Below are positions 3,865 through 24,178 of a stretch of DNA of 55,116 bases, one piece after another. Within the stretch, counting starts at the first letter, position 1. Every line of letters starts with the position of its first letter. Position numbers and translations under genes: made by a program. Below the pieces are notes generated by a model, which was not told the origin of the DNA, made no database searches, and worked only from the letters and a program-made list of their open reading frames with translations. Source of the stretch: a virus (lineage: Duplodnaviria > Caudoviricetes); IMG/VR virus record IMGVR_UViG_3300012930_000005, positions 1 to 55,116 of that record. One strand, written 5' to 3'.

Positions 3865-3882
3865 TAAACGAGGGAACCCGCC

Positions 3883-4734
3883 ATGACTACCGAAGAAATT
3901 CTAAAAGACGCAGGGTTTTCGGAAGAGGACATCAAAGCCCTCGACCCGAAGATCATTGCAGGTGTCGGAAAGGTAGCTACAGAGTCCGCATCTATGCGAG
4001 CTGCAGCCGCCGCCGACAAAGCTACAGCAGATGAAGAGAAGCGTCGTATGGAAGCCTGGTTCAACGAAGACGTTATCCCTCAGATCAACACGAACTATAG
4101 CGAAGTCGCTTCGGCGAAAGCGACGGCTGAGTTCTACCGGCTCCAGAATGAGGGAGCGAGAGCCCAGGGCTTCGTTCCGAAGGATGCACCCGGATACGTC
4201 CCGGGAACCAAGACCGTTCCTAACAACGAACAGCAGCCGCGTGGTGAGGGGGGTCAATTCGTGCAGAACCAAGAGGTAGCAGGAAGCAAGTTCATCACGA
4301 AGGAAGACTTCTACAGCGCCATCACAAATTCGCAGTGGGCCGTGAATGAGTACTCTCGTCTCTACCCCGGACAGACCATCCCAGACGACATCCAGGTACT
4401 CGGAACCGAAGCGCAGAATCTTCGCAAGCCGTTCCGCGATCACGTCTCAGACAAATACAAATTCGAAGCTCGCCGTCAGGAGATTCAGGCTGCAAAGCAG
4501 CAAGAGCATGACGACAAGATCCGCAAGGATGAGCGCGAAAAGGTGGTAAAGGAAAACGCAGAGAAGTATGGGCCGAACCCAGATCTGCGTGTACCGCAAG
4601 GCGTGTCGAGCTTCTCCACTATCAGGGAGAATCCGAACGTCAACAAGAATCCAGGGAGCATGAACCCGAATGAGCGCCGTGCGGCTGTACGCAAGTTCAT
4701 TCAGGAACGTGTTTCGCAGCAAACAATTCAGTAA
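3883..4734 (+). CDS. Capsid scaffolding protein (putative)
   Basis: 283 aa charged coiled-coil immediately upstream of the MCP. Confidence 0.7.
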   Translation: MTTEEILKDAGFSEEDIKALDPKIIAGVGKVATESASMRAAAAADKATADEEKRRMEAWFNEDVIPQINTNYSEVASAKATAEFYRLQNEGARAQGFVPKDAPGYVPGTKTVPNNEQQPRGEGGQFVQNQEVAGSKFITKEDFYSAITNSQWAVNEYSRLYPGQTIPDDIQVLGTEAQNLRKPFRDHVSDKYKFEARRQEIQAAKQQEHDDKIRKDEREKVVKENAEKYGPNPDLRVPQGVSSFSTIRENPNVNKNPGSMNPNERRAAVRKFIQERVSQQTIQ

Positions 4735-4749
4735 TCGGGAAGGTAAGTC

Positions 4750-5931
4750 ATGGCAGATCCGCTATTCAATGAACTTTCAGCGACGACAAAGGTGGATATT
4801 CGTAATGCCGTCGTCTGGAACAACTACTGGGTTGACACCCCACTGCAGGATCACCTGCGTCGTAATGGAGCTGTAGACCCGTTCCTGGGCGGCAGCTCAA
4901 TGCAGGAGCCGATTCTCTATGGCGGACCGGACGGTGGCGCAATCAACCCCGGACAGACCGTAACTGTAACGCGTAAGCAGATCGTTGCTGCGTTCCAGTT
5001 CATGCCAAAGGCGTATGCATCGTGGTTCTCTTACGATGACTTCGAAATGGCACCCGATGAGGGCGGCGTCATGAACAGCGGTGAGCCAGCAGCGGTTGAC
5101 CTCTACCAGGTATACGTCGAAGGTCTGACGAGCCGGTTGAACACGCTGAATGAGCTTGACTTCTTCCGTCACGGACAGGCTTCGGCCACCAATGGCGGCG
5201 GAGCCGGTGTGGCTGATGATCGTTCGCTCGCTATCAACGGAGCTGCTGAAGCTTGTAACGATGGATTCACCCCATCATGGGATGGAAACATCTTCACAAA
5301 CTACGGCGCTCAGGTTCGTAACGGCGCGGTCCAGAACACCATCAACTCCATCCCGTACTTCTTCGGAAACCCTGACGGTTCGGCCGGTCAGATCAGCTTC
5401 GAGGGAATGCTGGAGATGTACCAGGGCTCATTCGAGCGGCCTGACATCGGAGTAACGTCCAAGATTGGATATACGTACATTGCAGCGCTCTATCAGCGTC
5501 AGCAGCGTTACGATACGTCGATCACAAAGGGCGATGGAATCCGCTGGAAGGGTCTGCAGTTCGAGGATGCGATCATCTATGACGACTGGCTCACTCCTTC
5601 GGCAGTTGACCCCGGCTACTTGCCAACGTCGTTGGTGGGCTCGGTCGGCGGTCAGCCCAACCTCACCGGCTCCTTCCTCTCACCAGCGAATCCTTCGCCA
5701 GCATCTCACCTTCCGGCGAGTACGAACATCACCGTCGGCGAGACGCTCTGGTTTCTCCACGGCGCAAGCTGGAAGATGAGAGCGACGAACAAGAAAGCGT
5801 GGTTCTTCGGTATCCGCGAGACTCAGGCTTACGACAACGTGAGCATGAACGCGATCTACATGAAGTGGGCCGGTAACATCTACAGCCCGATACCACGTAA
5901 CAATCGTCAGGGCTACGGATTTACCAGCTAA
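4750..5931 (+). CDS. Major capsid protein
   Basis: 393 aa; position after scaffold; HK97-fold-like composition; strong codon bias. Confidence 0.82.
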   Translation: MADPLFNELSATTKVDIRNAVVWNNYWVDTPLQDHLRRNGAVDPFLGGSSMQEPILYGGPDGGAINPGQTVTVTRKQIVAAFQFMPKAYASWFSYDDFEMAPDEGGVMNSGEPAAVDLYQVYVEGLTSRLNTLNELDFFRHGQASATNGGGAGVADDRSLAINGAAEACNDGFTPSWDGNIFTNYGAQVRNGAVQNTINSIPYFFGNPDGSAGQISFEGMLEMYQGSFERPDIGVTSKIGYTYIAALYQRQQRYDTSITKGDGIRWKGLQFEDAIIYDDWLTPSAVDPGYLPTSLVGSVGGQPNLTGSFLSPANPSPASHLPASTNITVGETLWFLHGASWKMRATNKKAWFFGIRETQAYDNVSMNAIYMKWAGNIYSPIPRNNRQGYGFTS

Positions 5932-5949
5932 TTTTCAGGAGATAGGTCG

Positions 5950-6768
5950 ATGTCAAACAAGCGGCTTGAATTTATACGGGGACCACTGAACCTGTCGAAC
6001 GATACGACAGATGGAGCCTTCACTGATCCGATTTCGGGTCAGAAGGTTCCTGGTGGTGGTCTCATCCTGGGTGACTACATCGAGCTAACCGATGCAGAAG
6101 CTCTAACCGTCTGCGACATCCCGACAGGTATCCTGTTCGGAGGTCGTTACCGACGCATCAAGCTGGATGCTGGAGCTACAGTTGCGAACGTCCTCAAGGG
6201 CAACGCAGCATTCGTAGTCCCAGGATCTTCAGTGTTCAATGTCGTCGCTACGGTAGTCGGTGTGGCGCTGACTCCTGGTACCTATCTCGTCAACGCTACT
6301 GGCGGCGGCGGAACCGGTGCTCAGATTTCAGTTGTAGTCGGTGCTGGTGGCACTGTTACGAGCACCACGCTTGTCAACGGTGGAAAGAACTACACCACGA
6401 CTCCGACGTTCACCCTTGCTGCAGGTGGAACGACCAATGCCACCTTCGTTGTCTTTATGGTCATCAACGATTACATCGTGACCACATCGAACATCGTTGG
6501 AGTCAACCTTTCCCAGGGACGCGGCGTGTTTCTCAACGTCATTACTCCTGGAAACTATGGTTGGATTCAGGAGAACGGTATCGCAACGTTCAACGTATCC
6601 ACGGCGGCGGGAGCTATAGGGGCACTTGTGACTGCGGTACAGGCCAGCAGCACATTCATCACGGCTGTTGCCGGACCTGCCTCACCAACATTCTTCGGAA
6701 CTGCATCGGATACTCCGGTAGTCGGCCTCGTACGCGGCTTGCTGGATCTTGCGGTGTGGCCGAGCTAA
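5950..6768 (+). CDS. Capsid decoration/cement protein with an inserted Gly/Thr-rich beta domain
   Basis: Follows MCP; GNYGWIQENG cement-type motif; insert GGGGTGA...GGKNYTTTPT. Confidence 0.6.
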   Translation: MSNKRLEFIRGPLNLSNDTTDGAFTDPISGQKVPGGGLILGDYIELTDAEALTVCDIPTGILFGGRYRRIKLDAGATVANVLKGNAAFVVPGSSVFNVVATVVGVALTPGTYLVNATGGGGTGAQISVVVGAGGTVTSTTLVNGGKNYTTTPTFTLAAGGTTNATFVVFMVINDYIVTTSNIVGVNLSQGRGVFLNVITPGNYGWIQENGIATFNVSTAAGAIGALVTAVQASSTFITAVAGPASPTFFGTASDTPVVGLVRGLLDLAVWPS

Positions 6769-6777
6769 GGGGGCTCT

Positions 6778-7095
6778 ATGTCGGGAACAGGACTAAAGGG
6801 TTACCCTTGCAGCATGGGCGGCAAGGTCGCTAAGGTGGGATTCATCAATGGGCCGGTACTGTACGTACCGGGTCCAACCGGTGGACTTCCCGTCCTCGAC
6901 ACTGCTTTTCGTAGCCTCGACTTTGTGTCGGCAGGAATTACGAGGAGTGGACTTTATTCGGTTGAAGCACAGCCCATTACTATCGGCAATGGAAAGCAGT
7001 GGAGACTGCGTTTCTTCGTCATAGCTACTGGACTGGAAGCTGCGGCTATCAACCTATCCGCTGAAGTGGTTCAGTTCTTGATTATCGGCGGATAA
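6778..7095 (+). CDS. Small virion structural protein
   Basis: 105 aa beta-rich; last gene before a terminator. Confidence 0.6.
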   Translation: MSGTGLKGYPCSMGGKVAKVGFINGPVLYVPGPTGGLPVLDTAFRSLDFVSAGITRSGLYSVEAQPITIGNGKQWRLRFFVIATGLEAAAINLSAEVVQFLIIGG

Positions 7096-7121
7096 ACGAC
7101 GTTTCACGGCGGTACGGCGGG

Positions 7122-7157
7122 AGGGGAATTTCGCGTGGCGGCGAGGTTCCCCTTTTT
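7122..7157 (+). terminator. Rho-independent terminator after the capsid genes
   Basis: aggggaatttcgc/gcgaggttcccct stem followed by tttt. Confidence 0.75.
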
Positions 7158-7168
7158 ATGTTGGGGGA

Positions 7169-8173
7169 ATGGATATGGCGTTCATTGATATGTGGCGAGA
7201 GATAGCGATAGAACTTGGTCCGATGCCTGGTGCGCTCGCTCGAACGAAGGTCAATGAAGCTCTAGGATTGGTGTACGACGAGAACAGATGGAGCTTCCAG
7301 CTTGGTACGAGCGGATGGCTTACACCTGGTCTACTGGGACCGCAGGGAACGACAGGGACGAGCCCTGGTCTTATCACGATAGCTCCATACTCAAACCAGG
7401 TTGTCGGTGATCCTACAGCGGCTACAGCGTGGCAGAATCTAATCGGTCGGCCGTTCATCTCGGAGATGCAGTTCCGCATCCCAGAGTTCGAGCTATACGA
7501 CATCATCGCGTTCGACGGTGTAAACACGCTGACCCTCGATAGACCGTGGATGGAGCCGAACCAGTTGAATCAGGGGTACATGATCTACCAGGCGTACTTC
7601 CCTGTGCCGGTGCAGGACTTCAGATCGTTTATTGCGATTAGAGATTTCACGAATACGCGTAACCTCGACTTCTCAAAGACGACTCGCGCTGACATGGCTG
7701 TGATCGACCCGCAGCGTATCGTATTCCAGCAGCCGACGAGAGCAGTGCCATTCGATCAGGATCATCGTCCAAACAGTGCGACGCCCGGATGGATGCGTTA
7801 TGAGCTGTGGCCGCATCCTCTATCCCAGTTGCCGTACTCGCTGGCGTTCATGAGGCGTGGTCCACTGCTGGTGAATCCATCGGACATGGTCCCGTATCCG
7901 TTCACGGAGGAGATGATCAAGTGGAGAGGGAAGAGCGTCTCGTATCTCTGGAAGGAGTCACAGAAGGGCGTAGACATGCAACGAGGTGCAGGAGCGAACT
8001 GGACGTTCCTGTCTCAAGCGGCCGACAAGCAATACACAAAGCTGTTACGACAAGCGCAGAGCAACGATAGAGACTTGTACAACCTGTACTGGACGAAGCT
8101 GAGACGTAACGGATGGGGAGAGGTTGGTCCATTCTTCTCTTCGGATGGTCACAATCTAACCATCGGGGGATAG
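7169..8173 (+). CDS. Head-tail adaptor-like virion protein
   Basis: 334 aa; adaptor-like N-terminal helices and ELWPHP motif; synteny. Confidence 0.55.
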   Translation: MDMAFIDMWREIAIELGPMPGALARTKVNEALGLVYDENRWSFQLGTSGWLTPGLLGPQGTTGTSPGLITIAPYSNQVVGDPTAATAWQNLIGRPFISEMQFRIPEFELYDIIAFDGVNTLTLDRPWMEPNQLNQGYMIYQAYFPVPVQDFRSFIAIRDFTNTRNLDFSKTTRADMAVIDPQRIVFQQPTRAVPFDQDHRPNSATPGWMRYELWPHPLSQLPYSLAFMRRGPLLVNPSDMVPYPFTEEMIKWRGKSVSYLWKESQKGVDMQRGAGANWTFLSQAADKQYTKLLRQAQSNDRDLYNLYWTKLRRNGWGEVGPFFSSDGHNLTIGG

Positions 8174-8175
8174 GC

Positions 8176-11100
8176 ATGAAATTCCGCATCATCTTTGCGT
8201 TACTGATGCTTTCGGTGTTTGGAGGAGTCGCACACTCCCAGGCACAGATTCGATACAACGGGTTGTGCTCGGCAAATGGTCTTCAGGTCACAACGCAAGG
8301 ATTGAAGTCTACCGGATACTTTGAATCTGCTTATCCCAGGTGCTTGGTGCGTGTCTTCGTTCACGGATCGAGCACGTTGGCGCCTATCACGACAAACGGG
8401 ACGGTACCCCTACCCAATCCATTCACGGCGGAAGCAGATGCCTCGTTCGCCTTCTATGCCTCGAATACCACTCACTACGACATCACGATGAGCGGTGCTG
8501 GCATGGTGACGACCACAATCTCTGATGTAGCGCTTCCGGGTGCTGGTGGTGGAGGTATCCTTCCACAGTCGGCCCCATTGCAGCCAGGTAACGCCCTGGG
8601 GAGCTACGACGCCACAACTGGACTGTTTACCTACACACCGGCCTCAGGAGGCGGAGGAGCCCCTGCAGGAAGCGTTCTGGACATACAAATCAAGAGCACA
8701 GCGACGACATTCGGGAATGTAGCTGGACTGGCGGCAATTCCGAACGGAGGTCTGGGAGTCGGTTTGAACAATCCTACGAACCCAGACCTTACCTTCGGGT
8801 ACTTCAGCGCCAAGAATCCGAACGGAAACTGCAACGTCAAGCTGTGGGACAGTAGCAGCACGTCCACGGGTAACGGGTTCAACAACGCGCTTGGAGCCGG
8901 TTGCAACAACCTGCAGCAGTTTCCAGACGACGTAAAGTCGGATGATCTACCGGCAGGACAGACTTACCCTGGACCGCAGGTATGGCAGCATCACGAAGGA
9001 CCAGGCTACAACTGGAACCAGTACTACAACTCGATTCTGGCGAAGAGAGAGCACTACAACCTGAGTACACGCATCTACCCTGATTCGGCCGGAACAGAGC
9101 AGATCACAGAAGACTTCGCACCAGGTTGGAACTTCGGCAACGTCTCGAACGTGACTGGAAACCTCTGGTCTACGACGAAGATGATGAACAGCGTCACCCA
9201 GTTCCTAAATGCCGGTATCAAACAGATGTGGGCAGGAGTGAACTTCTGTAACGGTGGAGGCGATTGCTCGACAAGCTACACCTACACTCACTGCAACGGA
9301 TGGACACCTGACGCCTCGGGTGAAGGTTGCGGAGGAAGCACGCAGCAAGTCTTCGAAGAGAACATTGATTACATCCGTGCGATCACCTCTTCTTCGACTC
9401 TGCCGGATGGATCTACGCAGATCATCTCGAACATCTTGGATGGAAACCCAGGAGCCCAGAGAATCGCTCTGAGCTTGGCAGCGATCAACGTTGTTGCTAT
9501 CGCGTCAGGAGAAACACCGTACAACGGGTTCACGGAGTACTCTCTGCAGTCAGGAACGTTGACCGGATCTGCTGGCATCTTGGCCGGTGTAGTGACTGCA
9601 ACGAACTCGGACTATGCGAACACGCAGACCTTCTACCGAAGCGATACGGCGACGATGGCGGTCGTCACAACAGCTATCCCAGTAGGAACTCAGTACGGAT
9701 GCGCGTTCGGATCATTCTTCAGCGAGAACGTAACCTTCACCGGGATAAGCAATCCTTCTGGAGGGAACCAGACCTTGACGTTTCGTCACCGATACCCATA
9801 CAACGGTCAGACGATGATGGCTGCTGGCAACTGCCAGTACTTGTCAATGTCTCTGGATGAGGGTGCGTACGGTCTACGCGAGTCGTTCCCGATGATATCA
9901 ATCGATGCGACTCACTTCGTATCGCAGCGCTATGGATATGGTTCTCACACACCGCTGACAAAGATCTTCCAGGTTGGCTCTGCAAAGCTTCCAGATCCAG
10001 CATTCCCCACGGTGGATGTACAGAGACTAGCGAACGGAGACACGTATGTAACGGTGAATCCGCAGGTAGCAGGTTCCTACGTACCAGGGACACAGCTCAC
10101 CACGTTCTGTTCGTCTGATTCATCCTTCAACGGACAGTTCACGGCCGCATTTGTATCACCCGTGGCCGACGCCGGTGGAAACTACTACATCCAATATCCG
10201 ACGAGCGCAACGAGCGTAGCGTCCTGCCCTGCAGCGAACGCAACCATCACTCTCTTCGGTCTGAACGGAGGTCACATCTACAACGGAGCTGAAGTCATCC
10301 ACGTAGACCTGAGCACCGGCCAGGACGTGTTGACGCTCGAACAGAACAGCACAGCATGGGTACCGGGTCAGCAGATCGACGTAGCGCATGGGATGAACCT
10401 CCAGATGCACAACGCAACGGATCAGACTACGCAGCTCTCGGTAGACTCTTCTGGCGGTAACAACGTGTTCACGCACTTCGTGAATGGAACCCAGGCACAG
10501 CTTGAACAGTGGGGCGGCATGAACGCTCTCGATCTAGCTCTGATGCGTGGTAACGGTGGACAGCGGCCGGTACCGAACTACATGGTGTTCCACATGCCCA
10601 TCAACAACCTCTTCAACGTGGTTGATTCACCGGACCACGGGTCTACGAAGTTCATCTTCGCTTGCTATGGATTCACCAGCGATCTAGCAACGAACTGCGG
10701 TAGGACACCAGACTTCAACCTCTTCAACTTCGAAGGTAAGGCGGCGAACGGAAACCTGGTTGGTACGACGATGACCTTCTCCCCGTCAACGTCCAGGTTC
10801 GCAATCAGAGCGCAGCTCATGGACTTCTCTTCTACGAACTTCCAGGTGGACGAAAACGTCGGCGTAAAGATCGTTCTCCCACCGACTGCCGTCAACACTG
10901 TACCTCTCACGTTGACGAGTCAGCAGACGAATGCAGGTAATGCCGGTATCAGCATGACGTTGAGTGCAGAGCACGACTTGCTGATGGGATACTTCGGACC
11001 TGGCAATGGAGCAGGGCTCGCAGGGACATACGGATTCTTCGATCAGAACAACCAGTGGTTCTCATGGAACTCGAATCAACTTAGTGATTTCTGTTTGGGT

Positions 11101-11334
11101 ACACCGTTGTCAGGTGGTAACGTAGCAGCTTGCACGGGCGCTCCGTGGATCTTCAACAAGTCTGCGAACACTACAACGCTCACTGGAACGTTGGCCGCAG
11201 GAACAGCAGTTACAGCCCCGAATCTGATCCAAGTTACGAGTGCAGTACAGCCGAGCGGTTGCTCGCTAACTGCAGGAAAGTTCGTTCAGGCAACCATCAA
11301 CGGAGTGTCTGTAAACATACCGGTGTGCAACTAA
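8176..11334 (+). CDS. Large tail spike/fibre-like protein with N-terminal signal peptide (1052 aa)
   Basis: Start MKFRIIFALLMLSVFGGVAHS|Q; spike N-domain motif PLPNPFTA..FAFYA..HYD; T/S/G/N-rich, many Cys. Confidence 0.75.
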   Translation: MKFRIIFALLMLSVFGGVAHSQAQIRYNGLCSANGLQVTTQGLKSTGYFESAYPRCLVRVFVHGSSTLAPITTNGTVPLPNPFTAEADASFAFYASNTTHYDITMSGAGMVTTTISDVALPGAGGGGILPQSAPLQPGNALGSYDATTGLFTYTPASGGGGAPAGSVLDIQIKSTATTFGNVAGLAAIPNGGLGVGLNNPTNPDLTFGYFSAKNPNGNCNVKLWDSSSTSTGNGFNNALGAGCNNLQQFPDDVKSDDLPAGQTYPGPQVWQHHEGPGYNWNQYYNSILAKREHYNLSTRIYPDSAGTEQITEDFAPGWNFGNVSNVTGNLWSTTKMMNSVTQFLNAGIKQMWAGVNFCNGGGDCSTSYTYTHCNGWTPDASGEGCGGSTQQVFEENIDYIRAITSSSTLPDGSTQIISNILDGNPGAQRIALSLAAINVVAIASGETPYNGFTEYSLQSGTLTGSAGILAGVVTATNSDYANTQTFYRSDTATMAVVTTAIPVGTQYGCAFGSFFSENVTFTGISNPSGGNQTLTFRHRYPYNGQTMMAAGNCQYLSMSLDEGAYGLRESFPMISIDATHFVSQRYGYGSHTPLTKIFQVGSAKLPDPAFPTVDVQRLANGDTYVTVNPQVAGSYVPGTQLTTFCSSDSSFNGQFTAAFVSPVADAGGNYYIQYPTSATSVASCPAANATITLFGLNGGHIYNGAEVIHVDLSTGQDVLTLEQNSTAWVPGQQIDVAHGMNLQMHNATDQTTQLSVDSSGGNNVFTHFVNGTQAQLEQWGGMNALDLALMRGNGGQRPVPNYMVFHMPINNLFNVVDSPDHGSTKFIFACYGFTSDLATNCGRTPDFNLFNFEGKAANGNLVGTTMTFSPSTSRFAIRAQLMDFSSTNFQVDENVGVKIVLPPTAVNTVPLTLTSQQTNAGNAGISMTLSAEHDLLMGYFGPGNGAGLAGTYGFFDQNNQWFSWNSNQLSDFCLGTPLSGGNVAACTGAPWIFNKSANTTTLTGTLAAGTAVTAPNLIQVTSAVQPSGCSLTAGKFVQATINGVSVNIPVCN

Positions 11335-12779
11335 TGAAGAAGCTCCTACAATTCGCGTTCCTGATCACCTTCTCTTCCCTGTGTTATGCCCAGAACTTGA
11401 ACTACAACGGAAGCTGCAGCCAGGGCTCAGTCAAAGCTCTTACCAGTGGTTCTCCATCATCGAACTACCTCCAAAGCGCTGTACCGGGATGCTTGGTTAG
11501 CGTATACGTCCATAGTTCACAGGTACTAGCGGCGATCTTTATCGAAGATGGAACGCCGAAACCGAATCCCTTTACCGCACAGAGCAACGCTGCGTTCAAC
11601 TTCTACGCATCGTCTAATTCGCACTACGACGTAACGATGCGAGCGTCTGGGATGACGACCACGACACTCACAGATGTCTCGCTAGGATCTGGAGGAGCTG
11701 GAGGTTCAGTTACGAGCGTGAGCGGTGGCGTAGGTGGTGGCATGACGGTGAACGTAGCTAATCCCACCACAACGCCTAACATCACAGTTGCCGCAGATGG
11801 TAGTCACTACATCCCGAACACCGGCGACGTGTCGAATTGGAATGGCAAGGTGAATCGTACTGGCGATACGATGACGGGACCGCTGAACATAGCAGCCTTC
11901 CCAGTCAATTCGACGGAAGTAACGAACAAGAACTATGTGGATACGCTGAACGCACAGGCTCAAGCTGCAGCGGCCGCAGCTCAGGCAACAGCGAATGCAG
12001 CTCAACCACAGTCACAAAAGAACCAGGTGAATGGATATGCAGGACTGGATGCAACAGCTCGCGTACCACGCGCCTTCCTTCCCAACGCTATCGCATACAC
12101 CGATACAGCGAACGCATTCAGTCAAAGCCAGTCGATAACAGGAAACCTCTCTGCATCGGGAGATGTGAAAGGTGGAACAGTTTCAGGTGGAGCGCTTGGG
12201 AACGTTAGGATGATGAACACTCCTATCGGGACTGCTATAAGCTGTTTGACGCTGAACGGATCGTGCTCTACCGCAGGTGTTGGTGCAGTAGGTTTGATCT
12301 ACAACAACACGGTTCCGAATGATCTTGTACTCGCCTATGGAGTGTCAGGACATCTATCGATTCAAAATAACGGAGTCGGAGCGGTCAATCAATTTATCTT
12401 CGACAGTGTAGGAAACCTGACTATACCTGGCGTTGTTGGTGGAGGATTCATTTCTTCCGGTACGACTACCGGACCTATCGCCATCTCCGCTTTCAACTGT
12501 GGACCGGGAAACCAGAACTGCAGGAATTACACCGGACAGTTCACAACCCAATTCAACGGTACCGGCGCTGCAGGGCAGGTAGGTACGATCACGTTCGCTC
12601 CAGCAGCACTCAGTACACAGATGTGTCTGGTGAACGGAGTCACGAGCACTCCGAATATCGCAGCGCTCGATATAGCTGTGTCTGGAACCACGAATACCGT
12701 TTATACGTTCAACCTCGTCAACGGAGCGGCAAACACTGCAGGGGCAATCCTTACCGTAAAGTACATCTGTTCGTTCTAG
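11334..12779 (+). CDS. Tail fibre-like protein with signal peptide (481 aa)
   Basis: MKKLLQFAFLITFSSLCYA|Q; N-domain paralogous to 8176; fibre motifs GDTMTGPL, TNKNYVD, NGYAGLD; TAATG coupling. Confidence 0.78.
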   Translation: MKKLLQFAFLITFSSLCYAQNLNYNGSCSQGSVKALTSGSPSSNYLQSAVPGCLVSVYVHSSQVLAAIFIEDGTPKPNPFTAQSNAAFNFYASSNSHYDVTMRASGMTTTTLTDVSLGSGGAGGSVTSVSGGVGGGMTVNVANPTTTPNITVAADGSHYIPNTGDVSNWNGKVNRTGDTMTGPLNIAAFPVNSTEVTNKNYVDTLNAQAQAAAAAAQATANAAQPQSQKNQVNGYAGLDATARVPRAFLPNAIAYTDTANAFSQSQSITGNLSASGDVKGGTVSGGALGNVRMMNTPIGTAISCLTLNGSCSTAGVGAVGLIYNNTVPNDLVLAYGVSGHLSIQNNGVGAVNQFIFDSVGNLTIPGVVGGGFISSGTTTGPIAISAFNCGPGNQNCRNYTGQFTTQFNGTGAAGQVGTITFAPAALSTQMCLVNGVTSTPNIAALDIAVSGTTNTVYTFNLVNGAANTAGAILTVKYICSF

Positions 12780-12805
12780 AGCATCTGAAGTTATAGGGAA
12801 TCGAC

Positions 12806-14440
12806 ATGAATATAAAAAATACAATACGATGCACACTTCTTCTCTTATTCGGCGGTCTGGAAAGTTACGCGCAGAGCAATCCTAAGCCAGCAGGAGCATA
12901 CATCAACGCTGGTGCAGGATGGACACCATTACTCGGTACAGCAACAGCCGGAGCGATCACGTATAACCCTGTACCTACAGCTTTGTTCATCTACAACACC
13001 AGCTTGGCTAAATGGGTTCCTTGGGATGGAACGAGCAGTGGTGGAGGAGGCACAGGGACAGTAACGAGTGTCTCTGCCACCGGTAATGCATTGGTGGCGG
13101 TGAACGTCACCGACCCAACGACGACACCATTGATTGTATTGACGCTTCCGAACCAAAACGCCAATAGCGTTTTCGGGAACTTTACAGGATCGAGCGCGGT
13201 TCCTACTTTTTCGTCTACCCCGCAATTCAACGGCGCAAATATCACCGGTTTGAACTTCACTCAAATCGGCGGCTCGGCCTCTATTGCACAGCTCCCGGCC
13301 ACGGTAATCCAGACAGTGGGAACTGCTACTGCCAATGTGATTCTCAAGCGAACCACTAGCAATACTGCGACCGACTCATCCTTGACAGACAACGGGACAA
13401 CCATAACGACGACTGAGGCTATAAATGCAGGAGCGGTAGCTACCACTGGCAACATCACGGCGCAAGGAACGGTGAACTCTACAGCCAACACAAGTCCGGC
13501 AAGTATCACAAACTCCGGTGTGGCCCTATCGGCATCTCCTACGGTTGCCGATGTTGTCTATTACGATGCAAGTCGAACTACGAATAACCACGTTGCAGAC
13601 GCTCTCTGGTTGAGTGGTTCATATTCGCTTCGATTCAAAAGCGATGACCAAGCCAGTGCAACTACCTTCTTCGCGGCTGCAGGCGGTCAGGCATCTGGCA
13701 TAACAGGTATCACCTCAAGTAGCGGCACAGGAACGTGGACGCACACTGGACCGTTTACGGCTACAGGGAACATCACAGCACCATCCTTCATCGGCAACGC
13801 TTCGTCAGCTACGAACCTACCTGGTGGGCTCCTGGGCTCCATGCCCTATCAGTCGGCCGCGTCAACTACTGCAATGCTCGCTGGAAGCACCTCTTCAGCG
13901 ATTGCAGTGCTCACTCAGCAAGGCAACGGAACGATCAGTGCAATTCCAGCATGGAACGCTGCTACCGGAACAGGTTTGGTAGTATTCGCAACTTCACCAA
14001 CCATCGCAACACCTACGCTTACAGGAACCACGAACAGTGGACCGATAACAGCGAACGGAGCCCTGACGACAAACCTGAGCTTGGTATCCACTCGGGCGAC
14101 CGGCACAGCTCCTCTGACCGTAACCTCCGTCACTCCAGTAGCGAATATGGTAGTGGCGAAACATCCAACCGCTCTGTATTGCGGAACGGCAGCGGCTTGT
14201 ACCGCAACCGCCGCACTCAACAGTCAGATGGTCTATGGATCAGCCACACTCACAACTGGAGCGGTAACAGTCACGGGAATATCACCAGCGTTCGCAGATA
14301 CAGCGTATATCTGCACGGTTACTTCGAAGACAACATCTAGCGCAGCAATCTTCAATGTACAAAACGTATCGACATCCTCTTTCACCATCAACGGGAGCGG
14401 TTCCGCTGGTGACGTAGTAGGTTACATTTGCGTTCGTTGA
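12806..14440 (+). CDS. Tail fibre-like Thr/Ala/Gly-rich protein with signal peptide
   Basis: MNIKNTIRCTLLLLFGGLESYA|Q; fibre repeats (TGTGLVVFATSPTI); C-terminus VGYICVR. Confidence 0.72.
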   Translation: MNIKNTIRCTLLLLFGGLESYAQSNPKPAGAYINAGAGWTPLLGTATAGAITYNPVPTALFIYNTSLAKWVPWDGTSSGGGGTGTVTSVSATGNALVAVNVTDPTTTPLIVLTLPNQNANSVFGNFTGSSAVPTFSSTPQFNGANITGLNFTQIGGSASIAQLPATVIQTVGTATANVILKRTTSNTATDSSLTDNGTTITTTEAINAGAVATTGNITAQGTVNSTANTSPASITNSGVALSASPTVADVVYYDASRTTNNHVADALWLSGSYSLRFKSDDQASATTFFAAAGGQASGITGITSSSGTGTWTHTGPFTATGNITAPSFIGNASSATNLPGGLLGSMPYQSAASTTAMLAGSTSSAIAVLTQQGNGTISAIPAWNAATGTGLVVFATSPTIATPTLTGTTNSGPITANGALTTNLSLVSTRATGTAPLTVTSVTPVANMVVAKHPTALYCGTAAACTATAALNSQMVYGSATLTTGAVTVTGISPAFADTAYICTVTSKTTSSAAIFNVQNVSTSSFTINGSGSAGDVVGYICVR

Positions 14441-14461
14441 CAAAGTACGACGGGGCACAAC

Positions 14462-14803
14462 ATGAAAAACCGAATCTTACTGAGTATTTGCATCATCATT
14501 ATCTACGCCTTGGGTCGAATAGCTTTCCGTCCACTGGAGAAGGTCTTAGCTGACTCTCCGAACGCGGATCTAGTAGGCTCTCTCACGGTAGCCTCTGGAG
14601 CGACAACAGCAGCAACACCATATACGTTCGCTCATGCTGGAACACACATATGCGTGATATCAACACAGACGGCGACAGCGAGCGTTCTTTCTGCATCTGG
14701 ACCGCTCGTACCGCAAGTAACATCAACGACTCTCAATGTTCAATTTGCTAACGCCGTGGCATCAGCTACGGTCGTGGGGTATATCTGTCATGGAACGTTC
14801 TAG
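14462..14803 (+). CDS. Small exported fibre-tip-like domain protein
   Basis: N-terminal hydrophobic leader; C-terminal VGYICHGTF similar to the 12806 C-terminus. Confidence 0.68.
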   Translation: MKNRILLSICIIIIYALGRIAFRPLEKVLADSPNADLVGSLTVASGATTAATPYTFAHAGTHICVISTQTATASVLSASGPLVPQVTSTTLNVQFANAVASATVVGYICHGTF

Positions 14804-15725
14804 ACTTATCAAAATCTCGGTTGGTTTCATCTTCTTCGCGTTCGCTCTCGCGCTCACGATACCCCTCCATTCACAGCAAGGTATTCTCAGTACTCGAACC
14901 ATCGGAAGCATCGGCGTAAATGCCGGTCAGCCTGTCTACAGCGTTGCTTGCACGACGAGCGTCTACCTCTGCGTTATACCGACAGATGGAACCCAGGCCT
15001 CTGCTGGTCTAGCGCTCGATACAGGTAATCCTGGCGAGCTCACAACCATCGTGACCTACGGACGTGCTCCGTGTGTCTATGACAACACCCCGATTCAAGG
15101 AAACATCGCTATCGTCGGTAATGGGGTTTGCCACGACAGTGGATTTACGAACCTCGCCAACATCTCGAACACACAGCTTGTATCAGGGAAGATCCTTCAA
15201 GTTCTGAGCCCCACCACGGCGCTCACGAACTTCCTCTGCCCTGGTTGTACAGGGAACCTGATCGAAGTCTCAACGATCAAACAGGCAGATCTGACAACGT
15301 ATATTCAGGCACACCAGCTTACGAGTGCCGGTCCTACTGGGCCAACGGGTGCGACAGGTGCTACTGGAGCAACTGGAACTACCGGCGCAACGGGTCCAGC
15401 GGGAGTCCTTTACTACAACTCGGCCGGTGCAGTAGCGAATATGAAGTGCTTCAATTCGGGAGCGTTCACTACCACCACATCAGGAACCTGGACGATGAGC
15501 TTCTCAGCCGCCAGCATAACTACGATTCGGAAGGTGAATGCGATGCCTATTTCACCGGCGACAACCAACGCCACGGATCAATATGTCGCCATCGTGAATC
15601 CAATCTCAGGATCTACTATTTCAGGCAAGGTTGTGTCTGGAACAGGAATCCTCTTACTCGGAGCTTCTTCGCTTATTCCGATAACGGTCGCTGCTACCAT
15701 TTATGTGGAAGTTTGCGGGACGTAA
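14790..15725 (+). CDS. Collagen-repeat fibre protein with signal peptide
   Basis: MERSRLIKISVGFIFFAFALALTIPLHS|QQ; eight GXY triplets at 15330-15404; Cys pairs. Confidence 0.72.
   Translation: MERSRLIKISVGFIFFAFALALTIPLHSQQGILSTRTIGSIGVNAGQPVYSVACTTSVYLCVIPTDGTQASAGLALDTGNPGELTTIVTYGRAPCVYDNTPIQGNIAIVGNGVCHDSGFTNLANISNTQLVSGKILQVLSPTTALTNFLCPGCTGNLIEVSTIKQADLTTYIQAHQLTSAGPTGPTGATGATGATGTTGATGPAGVLYYNSAGAVANMKCFNSGAFTTTTSGTWTMSFSAASITTIRKVNAMPISPATTNATDQYVAIVNPISGSTISGKVVSGTGILLLGASSLIPITVAATIYVEVCGT
15330..15404 (+). repeat. Collagen-like Gly-X-Y repeat
   Basis: GPTGPTGATGATGATGTTGATGPAG. Confidence 0.9.
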
Positions 15726-15803
15726 AACTGGAGTCTCTTGTTACACTTTGCGTAAAAGAACAATCTCCGCAGTAGAGCAAAATTACGGAATGGGGCCATT
15801 GCC

Positions 15804-16091
15804 TTGGCAAATTCAGAGAATCCTTCTATCGGCGAAATTCTCACGCGGCTTGGTGATCTAGAGGTTGAACAGGCCACTTTCGCAGCTCATCAGGAATGGG
15901 CGACCGGGAGAATAAAGAAGCATGACAAGGATCTCTACGAGGGTAATGGTTTGCCAGCTATAACTCAAAGGCTGTCAACCCTGGAGATGATCGCAGGGAT
16001 GGCTAAAGCTATGGTGGGACTCGCAGCGCTGAATACGATTGCGCTGTTCGTGTTCCTTTTCAAATTCTGGGTGAGTAAAGGGGGGAAGTAA
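15804..16091 (+). CDS. Holin-like protein (coiled-coil plus C-terminal TM helix)
   Basis: TTG start; single C-terminal TM segment; upstream of the endolysin. Confidence 0.5.
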   Translation: MANSENPSIGEILTRLGDLEVEQATFAAHQEWATGRIKKHDKDLYEGNGLPAITQRLSTLEMIAGMAKAMVGLAALNTIALFVFLFKFWVSKGGK

Positions 16092-16104
16092 TCCCCCCTC
16101 TCTT
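16078..16104. terminator. Hairpin between convergent genes, probably a bidirectional terminator
   Basis: gggggg-aagtaat-cccccc, preceded by aaa and followed by tctctt. Confidence 0.55.
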
Positions 16105-16105
16105 G

Positions 16106-16246
16106 CTACCCACCGTGACCAGGTCGCGGTGTTGGTTCGCCGGAATCGTCGGCTGTTGCGGCGGTAGAAGACTCGTCCGTTTCGCACTCTTCTGCGTCAA
16201 CTTCCTTCTCTTCTTCAGGCTTGTGCTCGTGCTCGTGCTTACTCAT
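16106..16246 (-). CDS. Small acidic peptide (46 aa) ending DDSGEPTPRPGHGG
   Basis: RBS aaagga; ATGAGTAA overlap with the stop of the upstream membrane-protein gene. Confidence 0.72.
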   Translation of the reverse strand: MSKHEHEHKPEEEKEVDAEECETDESSTAATADDSGEPTPRPGHGG

Positions 16247-16685
16247 ATTGTTGGTCCTTTCCGGGCTTGATAAATAGGAAAGCCGCTGTCCAGAGGATAA
16301 AGCAAGCAAGGTTGAAAAGGTTCAACACCTCATGACCTTGCTGGAATGTATCGTCTGTGACGAAGTGTTTGGAGAGATAGACAACGAGCTTCATCACCAG
16401 GAAAGCAACCATCGGAATCCAGACGTACCAGATATCCTGCTTTCTGCATTCCCAGATAGCAACCATGTAAAGAGCGATGTTTATGATGCCGATGGTGAAC
16501 ACCGCGGTGAAGTATTCCCAAGATCCTCTCCCGTAAACGGACAGGATTCCGATGAAGAAAACAGTCTCCATCAGATCTGCAAGGATCACGGCCGGAAAGC
16601 TCAGGAGCCTCCAGCGACGACGGTACAGCGTGAGCAGGATTACGAAGTGCAGAATATTTACTAATGCCCAGAGTGCATTATCCAT
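16239..16685 (-). CDS. Polytopic membrane protein (about 5 TM, 148 aa), antisense within the lysis module
   Basis: MDNALWALVNILHFVILL...; several hydrophobic helices; TATCAT 6 nt upstream of the ATG (leaderless-type start). Confidence 0.78.
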   Translation of the reverse strand: MDNALWALVNILHFVILLTLYRRRWRLLSFPAVILADLMETVFFIGILSVYGRGSWEYFTAVFTIGIINIALYMVAIWECRKQDIWYVWIPMVAFLVMKLVVYLSKHFVTDDTFQQGHEVLNLFNLACFILWTAAFLFIKPGKDQQYE

Positions 16686-16715
16686 GCGAAGATGATAGTT
16701 GAAGCGGGGAAGAAA

Positions 16716-17222
16716 ATGGATATTACCAGCGAAACTCGTTTGTCGCAAGTTGACCCTGTTCTGGAGAAGAAGGTTCACATTGCGGTCGCACAGATCGCTC
16801 TCGAACACGGTATTGAGGTTCATGTTGCACAAGCTCTCCGTTCTGTAGCGGACCAGGATGCGCTCTACGCCAAGGGAAGGACGGTACTCAAAGATGCAAG
16901 CGGGAAGGCAGTCCATATCGTCACGTACGCGAGAGGCGGATACAGCTCGCACAACTTCGGTTTGGCAGTCGATCTTGTCCCAGGGGTACTTGGCAAGATC
17001 GTTTGGACTCCCAACTGGGACTCCGAAGATCCAGCCTATGGGTATATGGCAAGCGCTTGCAAAGCCGCAGGGTTGAAGTGGGGCGGTGACTGGATAGGAA
17101 AAAAGAAAGACTTGCCTCACTTCTACATCGGACCGGACACCCCAACTGATCTAATGCGTCTAGCCCTGAACGTCCACGGTTTGCAGTATGTGTGGGACCA
17201 GGTAGCGGCAGGGACTTACTAA
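16716..17222 (+). CDS. Endolysin, M15-family L-Ala-D-Glu peptidase
   Basis: RS..DQDALYAKGRT, SSHNFGLAVD, WGGDW...DLPHF motifs. Confidence 0.9.
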   Translation: MDITSETRLSQVDPVLEKKVHIAVAQIALEHGIEVHVAQALRSVADQDALYAKGRTVLKDASGKAVHIVTYARGGYSSHNFGLAVDLVPGVLGKIVWTPNWDSEDPAYGYMASACKAAGLKWGGDWIGKKKDLPHFYIGPDTPTDLMRLALNVHGLQYVWDQVAAGTY

Positions 17223-17440
17223 TGTGCATCGTCCGATTGGGTGAACACACCTTCAGTGCAGACCTCATCACCTGCATGAAAAAGGGAGACAAGAAAGGCA
17301 CCACGCTTGTGTGGGTTGCCGGTCAGTCTGCCATCGATGGCAATTTCATTGTGGATGAAGAGCATGACACGGCAGTAGACTTGTGGCTTAGGGCTCTGCA
17401 CGGTGAAGACGAAGACGAGGAGGAAGACGATGCCAGCTAG
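17222..17440 (+). CDS. Hypothetical protein with acidic tail
   Basis: TAATG coupling; 72 aa. Confidence 0.65.
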   Translation: MCIVRLGEHTFSADLITCMKKGDKKGTTLVWVAGQSAIDGNFIVDEEHDTAVDLWLRALHGEDEDEEEDDAS

Positions 17441-17606
17441 CGAAGTGATGGACGACTTCAAAGAAGGAAAGCTCCACAGCGGTAAATCGGGGAAGATCGT
17501 CAAGAACAAGAAACAGGCCAAGGCCATCCAACTCAGCTACCTCCGCAAGGAAGGTAAGATCGGTCCACGCAAGCCTTCGAAGAAGAAGAAGCAATACAAA
17601 CGGTGA
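17430..17606 (+). CDS. Small basic protein, DUF6496-like
   Basis: VMDDFKEGKLHSGKSGKIVKNKKQAKAI matches the recalled family signature; RBS gaggagg. Confidence 0.75.
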   Translation: MPASEVMDDFKEGKLHSGKSGKIVKNKKQAKAIQLSYLRKEGKIGPRKPSKKKKQYKR

Positions 17607-17609
17607 TCG

Positions 17610-18956
17610 ATGCCCTACACGTACCTGACCTTCGCACAGGCTCGGCAGCAACTCGCATCTAAGCTAGCAGATGAGGGAAACGTTAGATGGACCGACACCG
17701 AAAATAGGTTCTACATCTACGAAGCGTTGAGAATGTGGAACTGCCTTACTGCTACGTGGAAGACGGACTGGTCTTTCAACTTCAATACCGGTACTACCGT
17801 TACATGGATCAATTCCGGCACCGGACTTCCAGGCAATCCTTCTCCTCGTCTGCAGCAAGTCACCTACGGCCAGCTCTATCAGATGATGCAGTACCATCTC
17901 CAGCAGCCAGCTTCCGGTGAAGTGTGGACAGGAACGACTCAGTTCCAGATGGTAGATCTGATCGGAGCGGTGAATCGCCATCGTGCAGAGATTCAACAGC
18001 AGACAGCTTGCAACACGATCATCTTCAATCTTCCAGCAGTGTCAGATAGCAGAGCTGCGGTATTGCCGGACACGATACTTGAGGTCATCCGAGCACGATG
18101 GGTACCTGCGTTCCCGACCGATGGACCGCCTGTAACGTTGGTGCGCGATGACCGTCTTGGTGAGATGTACTACGAAGCCGGTTACGTACAAGCTCCGGCG
18201 GGTATTCCGAGTGACTACGATGTGTCGAGCGTTGCTCCGCTGCAATTCTTCGTAGACATCGCTCCGAACGTACCTGGTCGATACGAGATTGTTGCTATCC
18301 AGGCGAGCCCGGACTCAACATCACCTCCGACCACTACCGGAATCTTCATACCGGATGACTTCATCTGGGTTCTGAAGAATGGAGCGATGGCAGACATCCT
18401 CGGTCGTGAGTCAGAAGCTACCGACCGGCCGCGTGCGGAGTACTTCCAGAAGCGCTACCAGGACGGCCTCAAGCTCCTGCAGAACACCCCGTGGATACTG
18501 ACGGCGTACATCAACAACGTTCCTGTCGATACGCCCTCTCTGGTGGAGCAAGACGGCTACGCTGCTGAGTGGGATTCGAAGCCAGCAACGCTGCAGGAGA
18601 TTATCACCACGGGTATCGACTTCTTCGCTGTTGTGCCGGACATCAACAATCCGACAAGCGTAACGCTTTCCATGCTTGGCAATGCACCGTTACCAGTGTT
18701 GGACTCAGATCCTATCCAGGTAAGCCGTGATGTGCTGGAAGCGATCATCGATTACGCACAGTTTCTCGCCACGATAAAGATCGGTGGTGCGGAGTTCCAG
18801 TCAGCACTACCGCTAGAGGCTAACTTCATCAGGCTTGCTTCTATGACGAACGGCCGTCTGGTAAAGACAGGCGCATTCATCGATGTTCTGTATAAGCAAG
18901 GCGCACGGCAGGAAGACTATCAAGAGCGGTTCTCTACGAAGACACAGGAAGAATAA
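17610..18956 (+). CDS. Tail adaptor/tubular protein (two adaptor-like repeats)
   Basis: 448 aa; adaptor-type N-terminus (WTDTENRFYIYEAL); directly before the nozzle. Confidence 0.6.
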   Translation: MPYTYLTFAQARQQLASKLADEGNVRWTDTENRFYIYEALRMWNCLTATWKTDWSFNFNTGTTVTWINSGTGLPGNPSPRLQQVTYGQLYQMMQYHLQQPASGEVWTGTTQFQMVDLIGAVNRHRAEIQQQTACNTIIFNLPAVSDSRAAVLPDTILEVIRARWVPAFPTDGPPVTLVRDDRLGEMYYEAGYVQAPAGIPSDYDVSSVAPLQFFVDIAPNVPGRYEIVAIQASPDSTSPPTTTGIFIPDDFIWVLKNGAMADILGRESEATDRPRAEYFQKRYQDGLKLLQNTPWILTAYINNVPVDTPSLVEQDGYAAEWDSKPATLQEIITTGIDFFAVVPDINNPTSVTLSMLGNAPLPVLDSDPIQVSRDVLEAIIDYAQFLATIKIGGAEFQSALPLEANFIRLASMTNGRLVKTGAFIDVLYKQGARQEDYQERFSTKTQEE

Positions 18957-23203: not shown

Positions 23204-24178
23204 ATGGCGACAACGCCAGCCATCCCGCCAGCGTATTGGCCTAACACAGACGGTAAGGCAGAGCCGGAGGTTAGCCGCGCTCTGCGTCTCGTCTATGACT
23301 CGCTGAACGACCACAATAACGCTATCTCTGAACTCAAGTCTCAGGTGGATCTAAAGAACGGTGTAACCCCTGTAACCCCCCCTGTAACCCCTCCAGCCAC
23401 AGGCGGGGGTGGAACATCTCCAAACACCAATCTTCACCCTATCAATCTTCAGAGTTCGGATTACACGCTACAGAACGGGGATAACAACGGCCTTGTGTCG
23501 ATGAACTCTGCGGCCGCTACGACGATTACCCTGAACGCCGCCATGACCATCGGTTCTATGGTCACGCTTGAGAACATCAACACCGGACCGGTAGCGATCA
23601 CACCCTCATCTGGAACGATCAACGGGCAGACCTCGATCAGCCTCGCTCAGAACCAGGGATGCATCGTCTTCTTCGATGGGACGAACTGGTGGGGTCTAAC
23701 GACGCCGAACCCAGTAACCTTCCAGACGAACGGAGCCCTGAACGGTTCGCAAGTCCTACTCAACCTGATAGCCGGTTCAAACATCACCCTGGCCGACAAC
23801 GGTTCTGGTGGGGTCACGATCACAGCAACCGGAAGTGGTAGCGCTCCAACGATCACCACGAATGCTAATGGAACAGCCGTGGCGTTCTCCGGTGGATACG
23901 TACACCAGTTTGGAGCAAGTTCGGCATCTCCGACCGGCGTGGCTAAGTCAACGGTTGCGGTTACCTTCCCCATCACATTCGGCGGGATACCAAGGGTAGT
24001 TTGTAACGTGGACAACAACGCCGATAGTTTCGGAACGAGCGTCTTCTCCTGCTACCCTTCATCTATCACCGCAAACGGCTTTATAGCCAACTTCGCTTGT
24101 GGTGTCATCATTGGTGGATCTGGTGCAGGAAACATCACTAACGTAGTACATGCGAACTGGGAAGCTGACTTCGCATAA
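23204..24178 (+). CDS. Tail fibre protein (no signal peptide)
   Basis: DYTLQNGDN / FDGTNWW fibre domain; C-terminal gp53-like tip (HQFG...VTFPITF...ITANGF...WEA). Confidence 0.72.
   Translation: MATTPAIPPAYWPNTDGKAEPEVSRALRLVYDSLNDHNNAISELKSQVDLKNGVTPVTPPVTPPATGGGGTSPNTNLHPINLQSSDYTLQNGDNNGLVSMNSAAATTITLNAAMTIGSMVTLENINTGPVAITPSSGTINGQTSISLAQNQGCIVFFDGTNWWGLTTPNPVTFQTNGALNGSQVLLNLIAGSNITLADNGSGGVTITATGSGSAPTITTNANGTAVAFSGGYVHQFGASSASPTGVAKSTVAVTFPITFGGIPRVVCNVDNNADSFGTSVFSCYPSSITANGFIANFACGVIIGGSGAGNITNVVHANWEADFA

Follow-up and report, generated by a model that had tools for sequence, protein, structure and literature searches.

The window analysed here, a term used throughout for the whole stretch of DNA, is the complete 55,116-bp virus record IMGVR_UViG_3300012930_000005 of IMG/VR, which has direct terminal repeats. 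It contains five consecutive genes, located between an adaptor-like tail gene and the lysis genes, whose products are of the tailspike or fibre type and begin with leaders typical of the general secretory (Sec) pathway. Such leaders on tailspike- and fibre-type genes are real, non-random and lineage-wide. We read the five products as appendage proteins of a Tunturi-like podophage of Acidobacteriaceae which would be exported through Sec and would dock onto virions at lysis, and we give this reading as a whole a probability of about 0.5. Taken by its parts, export of the proteins is very probable from their sequences, and docking onto virions at lysis is about as well supported as its negation. 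A periplasm-matured virion appendage system, as proposed in a preliminary description of the window, is plausible.

The five open reading frames (ORFs) singled out in that description are all present (lengths in amino acids, aa):

8176..11334, plus strand: ORF1, 1052 aa; predicted leader up to aa 21 or 23, then a conserved N-domain that holds a Cys pair and extends to about aa 125, a Gly-rich linker and a long variable part; 18 Cys in all
11334..12779, plus strand: ORF2, 481 aa; predicted leader aa 1-19, N-domain from aa 20 to about aa 125, then a fibre-like part
12806..14440, plus strand: ORF3, 544 aa; predicted leader aa 1-22, Thr/Ser/Gly-rich fibre-like body, C-terminal knob ending ..VGYICVR
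14462..14803, plus strand: ORF4, 113 aa; hydrophobic leader or signal anchor and a stand-alone knob of the ORF3 type; 2 Cys
14790..15725, plus strand: ORF5, 311 aa; predicted leader aa 1-28, Cys-rich N-terminal part, collagen-like Gly-X-Y (GXY) run, C-terminal domain; 8 Cys in all

Leaders of the five genes

A Sec leader cleaved by signal peptidase I was recognised by a positive n-region, an uncharged core of 8-16 residues, small residues at positions -3 and -1 and a total length of about 15-35 residues. All five ORFs carry a leader of this type: the basic residues number one to three, the hydrophobic run is 10-16 residues long and free of charge, and positions -3 and -1 hold small residues. 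The leader of ORF1 consists of MKFR followed by a hydrophobic core and either AHS|Q or SQA|Q, and those of ORF2, ORF3 and ORF5 end in ..LCYA|Q, ..ESYA|Q and ..PLHS|Q respectively, with Gln at +1 in four of the five proteins (ORF1, 2, 3 and 5). The preliminary description had assigned a leader to each ORF, which holds, but the cut site that it proposed for ORF4 (KVLA|D) does not, as it is atypical and lies 13 residues past the core behind charged residues. ORF4 has the strongest hydrophobic core of the five and no clean cut site, and it passes the strict rule only with an early cut at IYA|L; its N-terminus may be a signal anchor or may be cut earlier.

The window has 62 ORFs of 100 aa or more; the strict rule flags nine of them, five being the contiguous leader ORFs. 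The remaining flags (genes outside the five are named by their first position) fall on 40084, which encodes a lipoprotein, on 49912, for a membrane or exported protein, on 24150, whose start is probably wrong, and on 52326 of the minus strand, which is probably not a gene. The capsid, the nozzle and the fibre at 23204 had been described as leaderless, and the products of 4750, 914, 7169, 17610, 18956 and 23204 were indeed all unflagged. The location of the five ORFs was likewise confirmed, with the product of 7169, adaptor-like by fold, upstream and a holin candidate (15804) and an endolysin (16692) downstream.

The start codons of the five ORFs abut or overlap the preceding stop, and G-rich Shine-Dalgarno-like runs were observed upstream of four of them. 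Since the conserved domain begins 7-8 residues past the predicted cut, a downstream start is not possible, and there is no in-frame start between leader and domain. A twin-arginine (Tat) signal was rejected because the twin-arginine motif is not consistent, and a lipoprotein signal because no lipobox precedes the cut. We also rejected a host island within a prophage, as the genome is complete, with terminal repeats, and has the genes inside its late operon, and as they also occur in lytic isolates. The motifs cited earlier are all present, namely NPFTA..F.FYA..HYD in ORF1 and ORF2, GDTMTGPL, TNKNYVD and NGYAGLD in ORF2 and the GXY run in ORF5, and they count as fibre hallmarks. The middle part of ORF2, which holds its fibre motifs, gave no match by tblastn against 50,697 phage records.

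The cut sites resemble those of the host lineage. As a host-type sample we used the 30 best CarboxypepD_reg proteins (L086-L115), typical of what is exported as outer-membrane-type protein, of one Terracidiphilus metagenome-assembled genome (MAG; G001), which also carries a related phage contig, and read their leaders by eye. The leader ends in A/G/S|Q in 26 of the 30, in C|Q in one and otherwise in three, and therefore the phage leaders resemble the signal peptidase I sites of the host lineage itself. In the accessible text of the paper on this Gln-at-+1 rule (the Q-rule), the rule is called specific to Bacteroidetes and Acidobacteria are not mentioned (PMC5837995). Our sample, which is one protein family of one genome, hints that the rule occurs in Acidobacteriaceae too. 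Glutaminyl cyclase of the papaya type (Glu_cyclase_2, PF05096) was not found in the MAG, and the mammalian-type family was not searched for. The phage proteins thus share Gln at +1 with the Bacteroidetes Q-rule class, but their relatives are from Acidobacteriaceae and not from Bacteroidota, and the likeness is one of pattern only.

Conservation across the lineage

The window phage is, by its sequence relationships, a podophage related to the Tunturiibacter (Acidobacteriota) phages Tunturi 1 and 2, which are cultured short-tailed phages of Tunturiibacter psychrotolerans from tundra soil (PMC11924767). Its head protein (4750) is 32% identical over the full length to that of Tunturi_1 and Tunturi_2, and Tunturi 1 and 2 were the sole matches when the head protein and ORF2 were each searched against the 50,697 phage records. 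Counterparts of the terminase, the portal, the head protein and the 7169 product are found in Tunturi_1. The relatives and the carrier genomes belong to Acidobacteriaceae.

Residues 1-134 of ORF2 were searched against 1.84 billion representative proteins, which gave an N-domain family of 1654 clusters (50% identity) at an expectation value (E) <=1e-3 and 273 at E<=1e-10, with ORF1 itself recovered as a representative (P0004). The best 150 of the 1654 vary from 104 to 2034 aa in length and nearly all of them align from their own first residues. Conservation of the leaders in homologues was checked on these 150. Read from the annotated start, 135 of them satisfied the strict rule; the other 15 are sequences called from too early a start and holding the leader inside, sequences truncated at the 5' end, or proteins that fall narrowly short of the rule. 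The distance from the predicted cut to the first conserved Cys has a median of 8 residues (interquartile range 7-8), and Gln occurs at +1, as placed by the heuristic cut, in 71 of the 135 that pass. The leaders are conserved in kind, that is in their physicochemical pattern, and not in sequence. A homologue search with the N-terminal part of ORF2 returned nine metagenome proteins, none with an informative name.

The N-terminal 118 aa of ORF1 are 46% identical to ORF2. Tunturi_1 gp12 aligns with ORF2 from residue 1, with 38% identity over residues 1-114, leader included. In Tunturi_1 the genes after gp11 carry leaders ending in ASA|Q (gp12), GFA|Q (gp13), ANA|T (gp14) and ANA|Q (gp16), and gp14 is deposited as 'tail spike protein'. 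ORF3 has 34 homologues, most with leaders (N-termini read by eye), and a large subset of them share the end ..Y[IVT]C[VI]R or ..YICVG. ORF4 matches the C-terminus of ORF3 with 29% identity over 78 aa and both Cys aligned (E 0.025, a single comparison). Three homologues of ORF5 extend beyond the collagen run (P0157, P0158 and P0161), all with hydrophobic N-termini.

A scan of IMG/VR with a six-sequence N-domain alignment confirmed 83 stretches, and 80 loci, on contigs of 8-138 kb, were retained from these; counts over these loci describe the lineage and not phages in general, and their ORF sets are greedy longest-ORF calls which include some non-genes. A scan of viral contigs with the head protein alone found one locus. 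BLAST detected homologues of the head protein (46), 5950 (37), 7169 (57) and 17610 (42) in the 80 loci, and because these recur, the loci are largely of the same phage lineage. A leader was flagged in 50-52 of the 61 homologues of ORF1 and ORF2. None was flagged in the homologues of the head protein (46), 5950 (37), 17610 (42), the portal (19) and 3883 (29), and few in those of 7169 (3 of 57) and 18956 (2 of 19). Leader ORFs cluster, with 20 runs of at least three and up to six among plus-strand ORFs of at least 150 aa. No homologue of ORF4 was found in the 80 loci.

Two matches came from bacterial bins, one an Acidobacteriaceae MAG and one the Terracidiphilus MAG. The contig from the Terracidiphilus MAG (L005) belongs to a related phage and carries homologues of 18956, 23204, 24150 and 28558. 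On both bacterial-bin contigs (L004 and L005) a homologue of 28558, and not of 7169, lies directly upstream of the leader genes. The product of 28558-29499 is a Cys-rich (7-9 Cys), leaderless protein of about 300 aa without a family match, and its homologues are at L004:745-1644 and L005:9023-9904. We noticed that the head protein, a 7169-like gene and a leader run also occur together on viral contigs of 121-138 kb (L021, L024, L025, L028, L031, L035 and L050), as against 55-63 kb for the window and Tunturi. Proteins of 177-179 aa with twin-arginine-like leaders (MNRRxF[LM]K..) were observed downstream of leader runs at L031:19791-20324 and L007:14649-15188, which suggests the presence of Tat-exported phage proteins, too, in the lineage.

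The five proteins are rich in Cys, with 43 in 2501 residues (1.7%) against 33 in 6284 residues (0.5%) for 16 other late proteins. Their mature Cys counts, from ORF1 to ORF5, are 18, 8, 4, 2 and 8 and thus all even, and C28 and C53 of the ORF2 N-domain are invariant in an alignment of 19 sequences. Of the 116 leader-bearing representatives that reach 300 aa, 108 have an even mature count. In the 80 loci the comparison was made on Cys-containing ORFs of the same minimum length, where the count is even in 99 of 122 leader-bearing proteins versus 138 of 291 others (Fisher p 1.3e-10), and the Cys content is 1.79% in leader-bearing proteins versus 0.84% in others. An even-cysteine bias of exported proteins is, from comparative work on Dsb systems, a mark of periplasmic disulfide formation, and the even counts together with the invariant Cys pair fit disulfides formed in the periplasm. 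Three Thioredoxin_4 (DsbA-like) proteins are present in the host-type Terracidiphilus MAG. Dsb, signal peptidase and chaperone families were not found among 62 further ORFs of the window, and therefore the host machinery would serve.

N-domain fold and late-region genes

The N-domain was modelled with AlphaFold2 (AF2) from ORF2 aa 1-134 and a 19-row alignment, at a predicted local distance difference test score (pLDDT) of 76. Its best fold matches in the PDB are tail-spike chains from the tail complex of the cyanopodophage Pan3 (E 8e-3) and one chain from the Pam1 tail machine (E 1.2e-2). In BFVD, 19 matches were found at E<=1e-3 (best E 1.9e-6), including proteins named as tail spike, EPS-depolymerase and pectate lyase superfamily, and at a weaker level (E 1e-3 to 1e-2) there are matches to proteins named as minor tail, tail collar and tail fibre. 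The TM scores of the fold matches, normalised to the query, are 0.43-0.56. A profile of the N-domain matched Pan3 'Tail spike protein' chains alone among PDB sequences, weakly (E 0.06) and through the motif PxxxxxxYxTGTxT...NPxxAxxxG. A protein atlas, used for leads only, pointed to viral clusters and to a transthyretin/CarboxypepD_reg-like sandwich. Matches of ORF2 to PF16 and gyrase B in PDB sequence searches (E 0.0035 or weaker) were taken as chance. ORF5 matches Pfam Collagen below the cut-off (E 0.0012), and tail-fibre families of PHROG match it over the GXY region only.

Of the five, only ORF1 and ORF2 belong to the N-domain family, in which the N-module stays constant and is followed by a Gly-rich linker and by distal parts that vary freely. 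A constant N-module with variable distal parts is a pattern typical of virion-anchored receptor-binding proteins. The distal domains were sampled with Pfam in a random 69 of 106 eligible leader-bearing ORFs of the relatives, a minority of which had any match: CHB_HEX_C_1 (3), Pect-lyase_RHGA_epim (2), BNR_2, F5_F8_type_C and DUF2961. Collagen runs also occur in leader-bearing relatives.

The order of the late region is 914, 4750, 5950, 6778, 7169, the five leader ORFs, 15804, a minus-strand gene, 16692, 17610, 18956 and 23204. The features around the five ORFs are as follows:

914: portal-like protein, weak P22_portal match
4750: head protein, by homology to Tunturi_1/2
7169..8173, plus strand: adaptor-like tail protein by fold, 334 aa, no Cys, no leader, directly upstream of the leader ORFs
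15804..16091, plus strand: holin candidate, 95 aa, one C-terminal transmembrane stretch; predicted from sequence and position, no family match
16239-16700, minus strand: the last ~150 codons of an ORF, which encode a polytopic membrane protein, between the holin candidate and the endolysin
16692..17222, plus strand: endolysin without a leader, Peptidase_M15_4/VanY (Pfam E 1.9e-11, above the cut-off)
17610..18956, plus strand: second adaptor candidate, SU10_adaptor-like (Pfam E 5.2e-05, 24.2 bits, below the 27-bit cut-off)
18956: large tail protein, 1281 aa, no leader
23204..24178, plus strand: leaderless fibre-like protein, 324 aa, weak H-type lectin-like C-terminus (Pfam H_lectin E 3.5e-4, below the cut-off)
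24189, 24732, 26288 and 28558: four proteins after 23204 without a family match

At E<=0.001, Foldseek matched the AF2 model of 7169 (pLDDT 83) to seven PDB chains, each 202-228 residues long and each part of a podophage portal-tail or tail complex (A4, VP1, Pa223, two chains of GP4 and two of SU10). We infer that the matched chains are adaptors from their size and from weak matches to T7 gp11 and tail tubular protein A. No significant adaptor match of 7169 was found at the sequence level; it is 30% identical to Tunturi_1 gp11, a 'tail protein'. Many of its homologues in the 80 loci end right before the first leader-bearing gene. A complex prediction with two copies of 7169 and three of the mature N-domain, run without controls, scored 0.00 and weighs neither way. 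The genome thus holds two unlike adaptor candidates, 7169 by fold and 17610 by a sub-threshold SU10_adaptor match, between which hhalign detected no sequence relation. None of the 42 homologues of 17610 in the related loci has a leader. Among ORFs up to four genes downstream of leader runs in these loci (109 of 154 scanned), seven SU10_adaptor and about eight cell-wall-hydrolase or peptidoglycan-binding proteins were found, and the order of leader genes, lysis genes and adaptor appears from this to be conserved at least sometimes.

The minus-strand gene at 16239-16700 is the sole antisense gene of the late region. Two further leader-type products are encoded far from the lysis genes, one at 40084-40449 (121 aa, lipoprotein-type leader ..LFITG|C) and one at 49912-50619 (235 aa, long hydrophobic N-terminus), and these could be spanin-like or exclusion proteins. 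The 62 ORFs scanned outside 1-30 kb include a Resolvase-type serine recombinase, several helix-turn-helix repressor-like proteins, a DnaB helicase, RusA and an RNase H/RVT_3 domain. Judging from this gene content, the phage may be temperate. A promoter and terminator scan of 3000-19000 gave fewer sites than shuffled sequence and is uninformative on transcription units.

Proposed route, alternatives and known systems

In the route that we propose, the five proteins would be exported across the inner membrane late in infection. Host signal peptidase I would cut the leader and, in four of the five, leave an N-terminal Gln 7-8 residues ahead of the first conserved Cys. The proteins would fold and form their disulfides in the periplasm until the holin and endolysin encoded directly downstream breach the inner membrane and the wall, when they would meet DNA-filled, tail-bearing particles. 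Docking onto the tail would be made through the conserved N-domain, with the adaptor-like product of 7169 as the candidate site. Late spontaneous attachment is biochemically feasible because tailspike-less P22 heads and fibreless T4 particles can be armed in vitro. Export and oxidative folding, as the preliminary description had put forward, are supported strongly but indirectly by the conserved leaders, the host-like A|Q sites, the even Cys counts and the invariant Cys pair. That description had left a choice between docking at lysis and display by the infected cell as adhesins or decoys; the tailspike-type N-domain and the place after an adaptor-like gene speak for docking, and the leaderless protein 23204 speaks against a need for it.

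Several points weigh against this route. No tailed phage is known to us to take up components from the periplasm, and docking would have to be confined to a short interval around lysis. The leaderless fibre 23204 is conserved in the relative on the Terracidiphilus-MAG contig, and the phage may adsorb without the five proteins. Neither Pfam nor PHROG gave a match for ORF1-4 and no meaningful match came from searching ORF1, ORF2, ORF3 and 7169 against PDB sequences, and the fibre or spike nature of ORF1-4 therefore rests on the N-domain fold, the context and the relatives. ORF4 has a poor cleavage site and no homologues in the 80 loci, and the homologues of ORF5 are few. Leaders were called by a home-made strict heuristic and not by SignalP. 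Possession of the N-domain was what selected the 80 loci, and some of them are near-duplicates (such as L006/L007, L012/L013/L020, L016/L017 and L038/L039), so that counts over them are not independent. The one host-type MAG, possibly incomplete, yielded neither DsbB nor VKOR nor the papaya-type glutaminyl cyclase, and the missing DsbB and VKOR may reflect this incompleteness or a different oxidase. A term search of the main text of the Tunturi paper found neither 'signal peptide' nor 'mass spectrometry' (PMC11924767).

The same export evidence would apply if the proteins were exported and never bound to virions, acting in the periplasm or free after type II secretion or lysis. We consider this unlikely, though it is the strongest of the alternatives. 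Possible roles would be as depolymerases or lectins that loosen exopolysaccharide for progeny release, in masking or destroying receptors on the cell and its debris, or as soluble decoys. Export of this kind is well precedented by the beta-helix pectate lyases of plant-pathogenic enterobacteria, which are exported by Sec, oxidised by DsbA and released by type II secretion. The leader-bearing relatives with domains of secreted glycan-active enzymes, a minority of the 69 scanned, point in this direction, adsorption might need no more than the leaderless 23204 and the large tail protein, and the topological problem of arming a cytoplasmic virion would not arise. However, a free enzyme has no obvious need for a tailspike-type N-module that is strictly conserved over 1654 clusters, the genes lie inside the late morphogenesis operon and after the adaptor-like gene in most related contigs, and five large paralogous proteins are many for receptor masking.

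It is improbable that the hydrophobic N-termini are instead uncleaved membrane tethers or assembly handles, which would hold the proteins at the inner membrane until lysis or make trimer or tail contacts while the bulk folds in the cytoplasm. ORF4 and some ORF5 homologues do look more like signal anchors than cleavable leaders, but in most members small residues at -3 and -1, together with a Gln at +1, recur at a constant distance from the domain and match host exported proteins. The even-Cys bias and the invariant Cys pair point to an oxidising compartment, and a positive N-terminus followed by a core and no further transmembrane stretch would place the bulk outside the cytoplasm even if uncut. 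Leaders that arise by chance or from wrongly called start codons are extremely improbable. Longer upstream frames exist for two ORFs (8113 and 11130) and ORF5 could start at 14736; nevertheless, the leaders occur in hundreds of independent sequences and in the deposited annotation of a cultured phage, and no in-frame start lies between leader and domain. The background is 4 of 57 other window ORFs and, among homologues of the leaderless proteins, the none to few given above. A start-codon artefact is effectively refuted by the conservation of the leaders and their fixed distance to the domain.

Our preferred reading of export followed by docking may be extended, more tentatively, to a widespread lineage of Acidobacteriota soil podophages, including Tunturi 1 and 2, that would build its host-recognition apparatus in the periplasm. 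Its spikes and fibres would be leader-cleaved, possibly pyroglutamate-capped, locked by disulfides and added to complete particles at lysis. In the textbook view the assembly of tailed phages is wholly cytoplasmic, and to our knowledge lysis and exclusion proteins are the only users of Sec in these phages. A full-text literature search, with subscription journals largely outside its coverage, returned no report of Sec leaders on the tail fibres or spikes of tailed phages. Tailspike- and fibre-type proteins with functional-looking Sec leaders are, on this sequence evidence, what is new here. Should export and virion docking both hold, assembly would be spread over two compartments and coupled to lysis, a pathway not known for any tailed phage. 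This would change the view of how receptor-binding proteins are stabilised (by disulfides and blocked N-termini) and of selection on lysis timing, and such proteins would be expressed for structural work and engineering in the periplasm rather than in the cytoplasm. They would presumably be oxidatively cross-linked receptor-binding proteins, hardy to acid and proteases, for life in soil. If they are not virion parts, a large 'tailspike' family (1654 clusters at 50% identity) would consist of secreted enzymes or lectins by which infected Acidobacteria, among the most abundant of soil bacteria, have their envelope or matrix reshaped. Either outcome would be new, and with cultures of Tunturi 1 and 2 and of their host in existence the question can be tested.

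Among known systems, lambda Lom and Bor and T5 Llp are also leader-bearing products of genes beside tail genes, and these are small outer-membrane proteins or lipoproteins without fibre architecture. The five ORFs differ from them in their length of up to 1052 aa, the lack of a lipobox and the tailspike-type N-domains. The closest mechanistic analogue is g3p (pIII) of the filamentous Ff phages, an adsorption protein that has a Sec leader, forms periplasmic disulfides and then joins the particle. Both systems would thus use an exported, disulfide-bonded adsorption protein, but Ff particles are extruded through the envelope, whereas here an icosahedral head with a short tail would be made in the cytoplasm and released by lysis. 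In the accessible text of a study of Porphyromonas gingivalis phages, five genes whose function is unknown and which have Q-rule leaders are discussed as modifiers of the host surface (PMC10367356). As far as that text describes them, they share the host-adapted signal peptidase I leaders that expose an N-terminal Gln, and differ in that they are not of the tail-spike type, do not lie in a morphogenesis operon and belong to another host phylum.

The N-module itself is shared with Pan3 (9vyg), Pam1 (7eeq) and the BFVD spikes, as a beta-sandwich with the motif '..Y.TGT.T.A.IY.D....L.NP..A...G.', although the PDB matches are modest (E ~1e-2). In Pan3 the motif occupies chain residues 21-61, which leaves no room for a leader, whereas the N-domain of the ORF1/ORF2 family is preceded by a predicted cleavable leader and an extra hairpin with the invariant Cys pair. 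The closest relatives, as judged from sequence, are gp12-16 of Tunturi. The gp11-gp16 region of Tunturi_1/2 (PP887698, PP885685) resembles the window in the leaders on gp12, gp13, gp14 and gp16 and in Cys counts that are mostly even, and differs from it in the C-terminal parts, the number of genes and their sizes.

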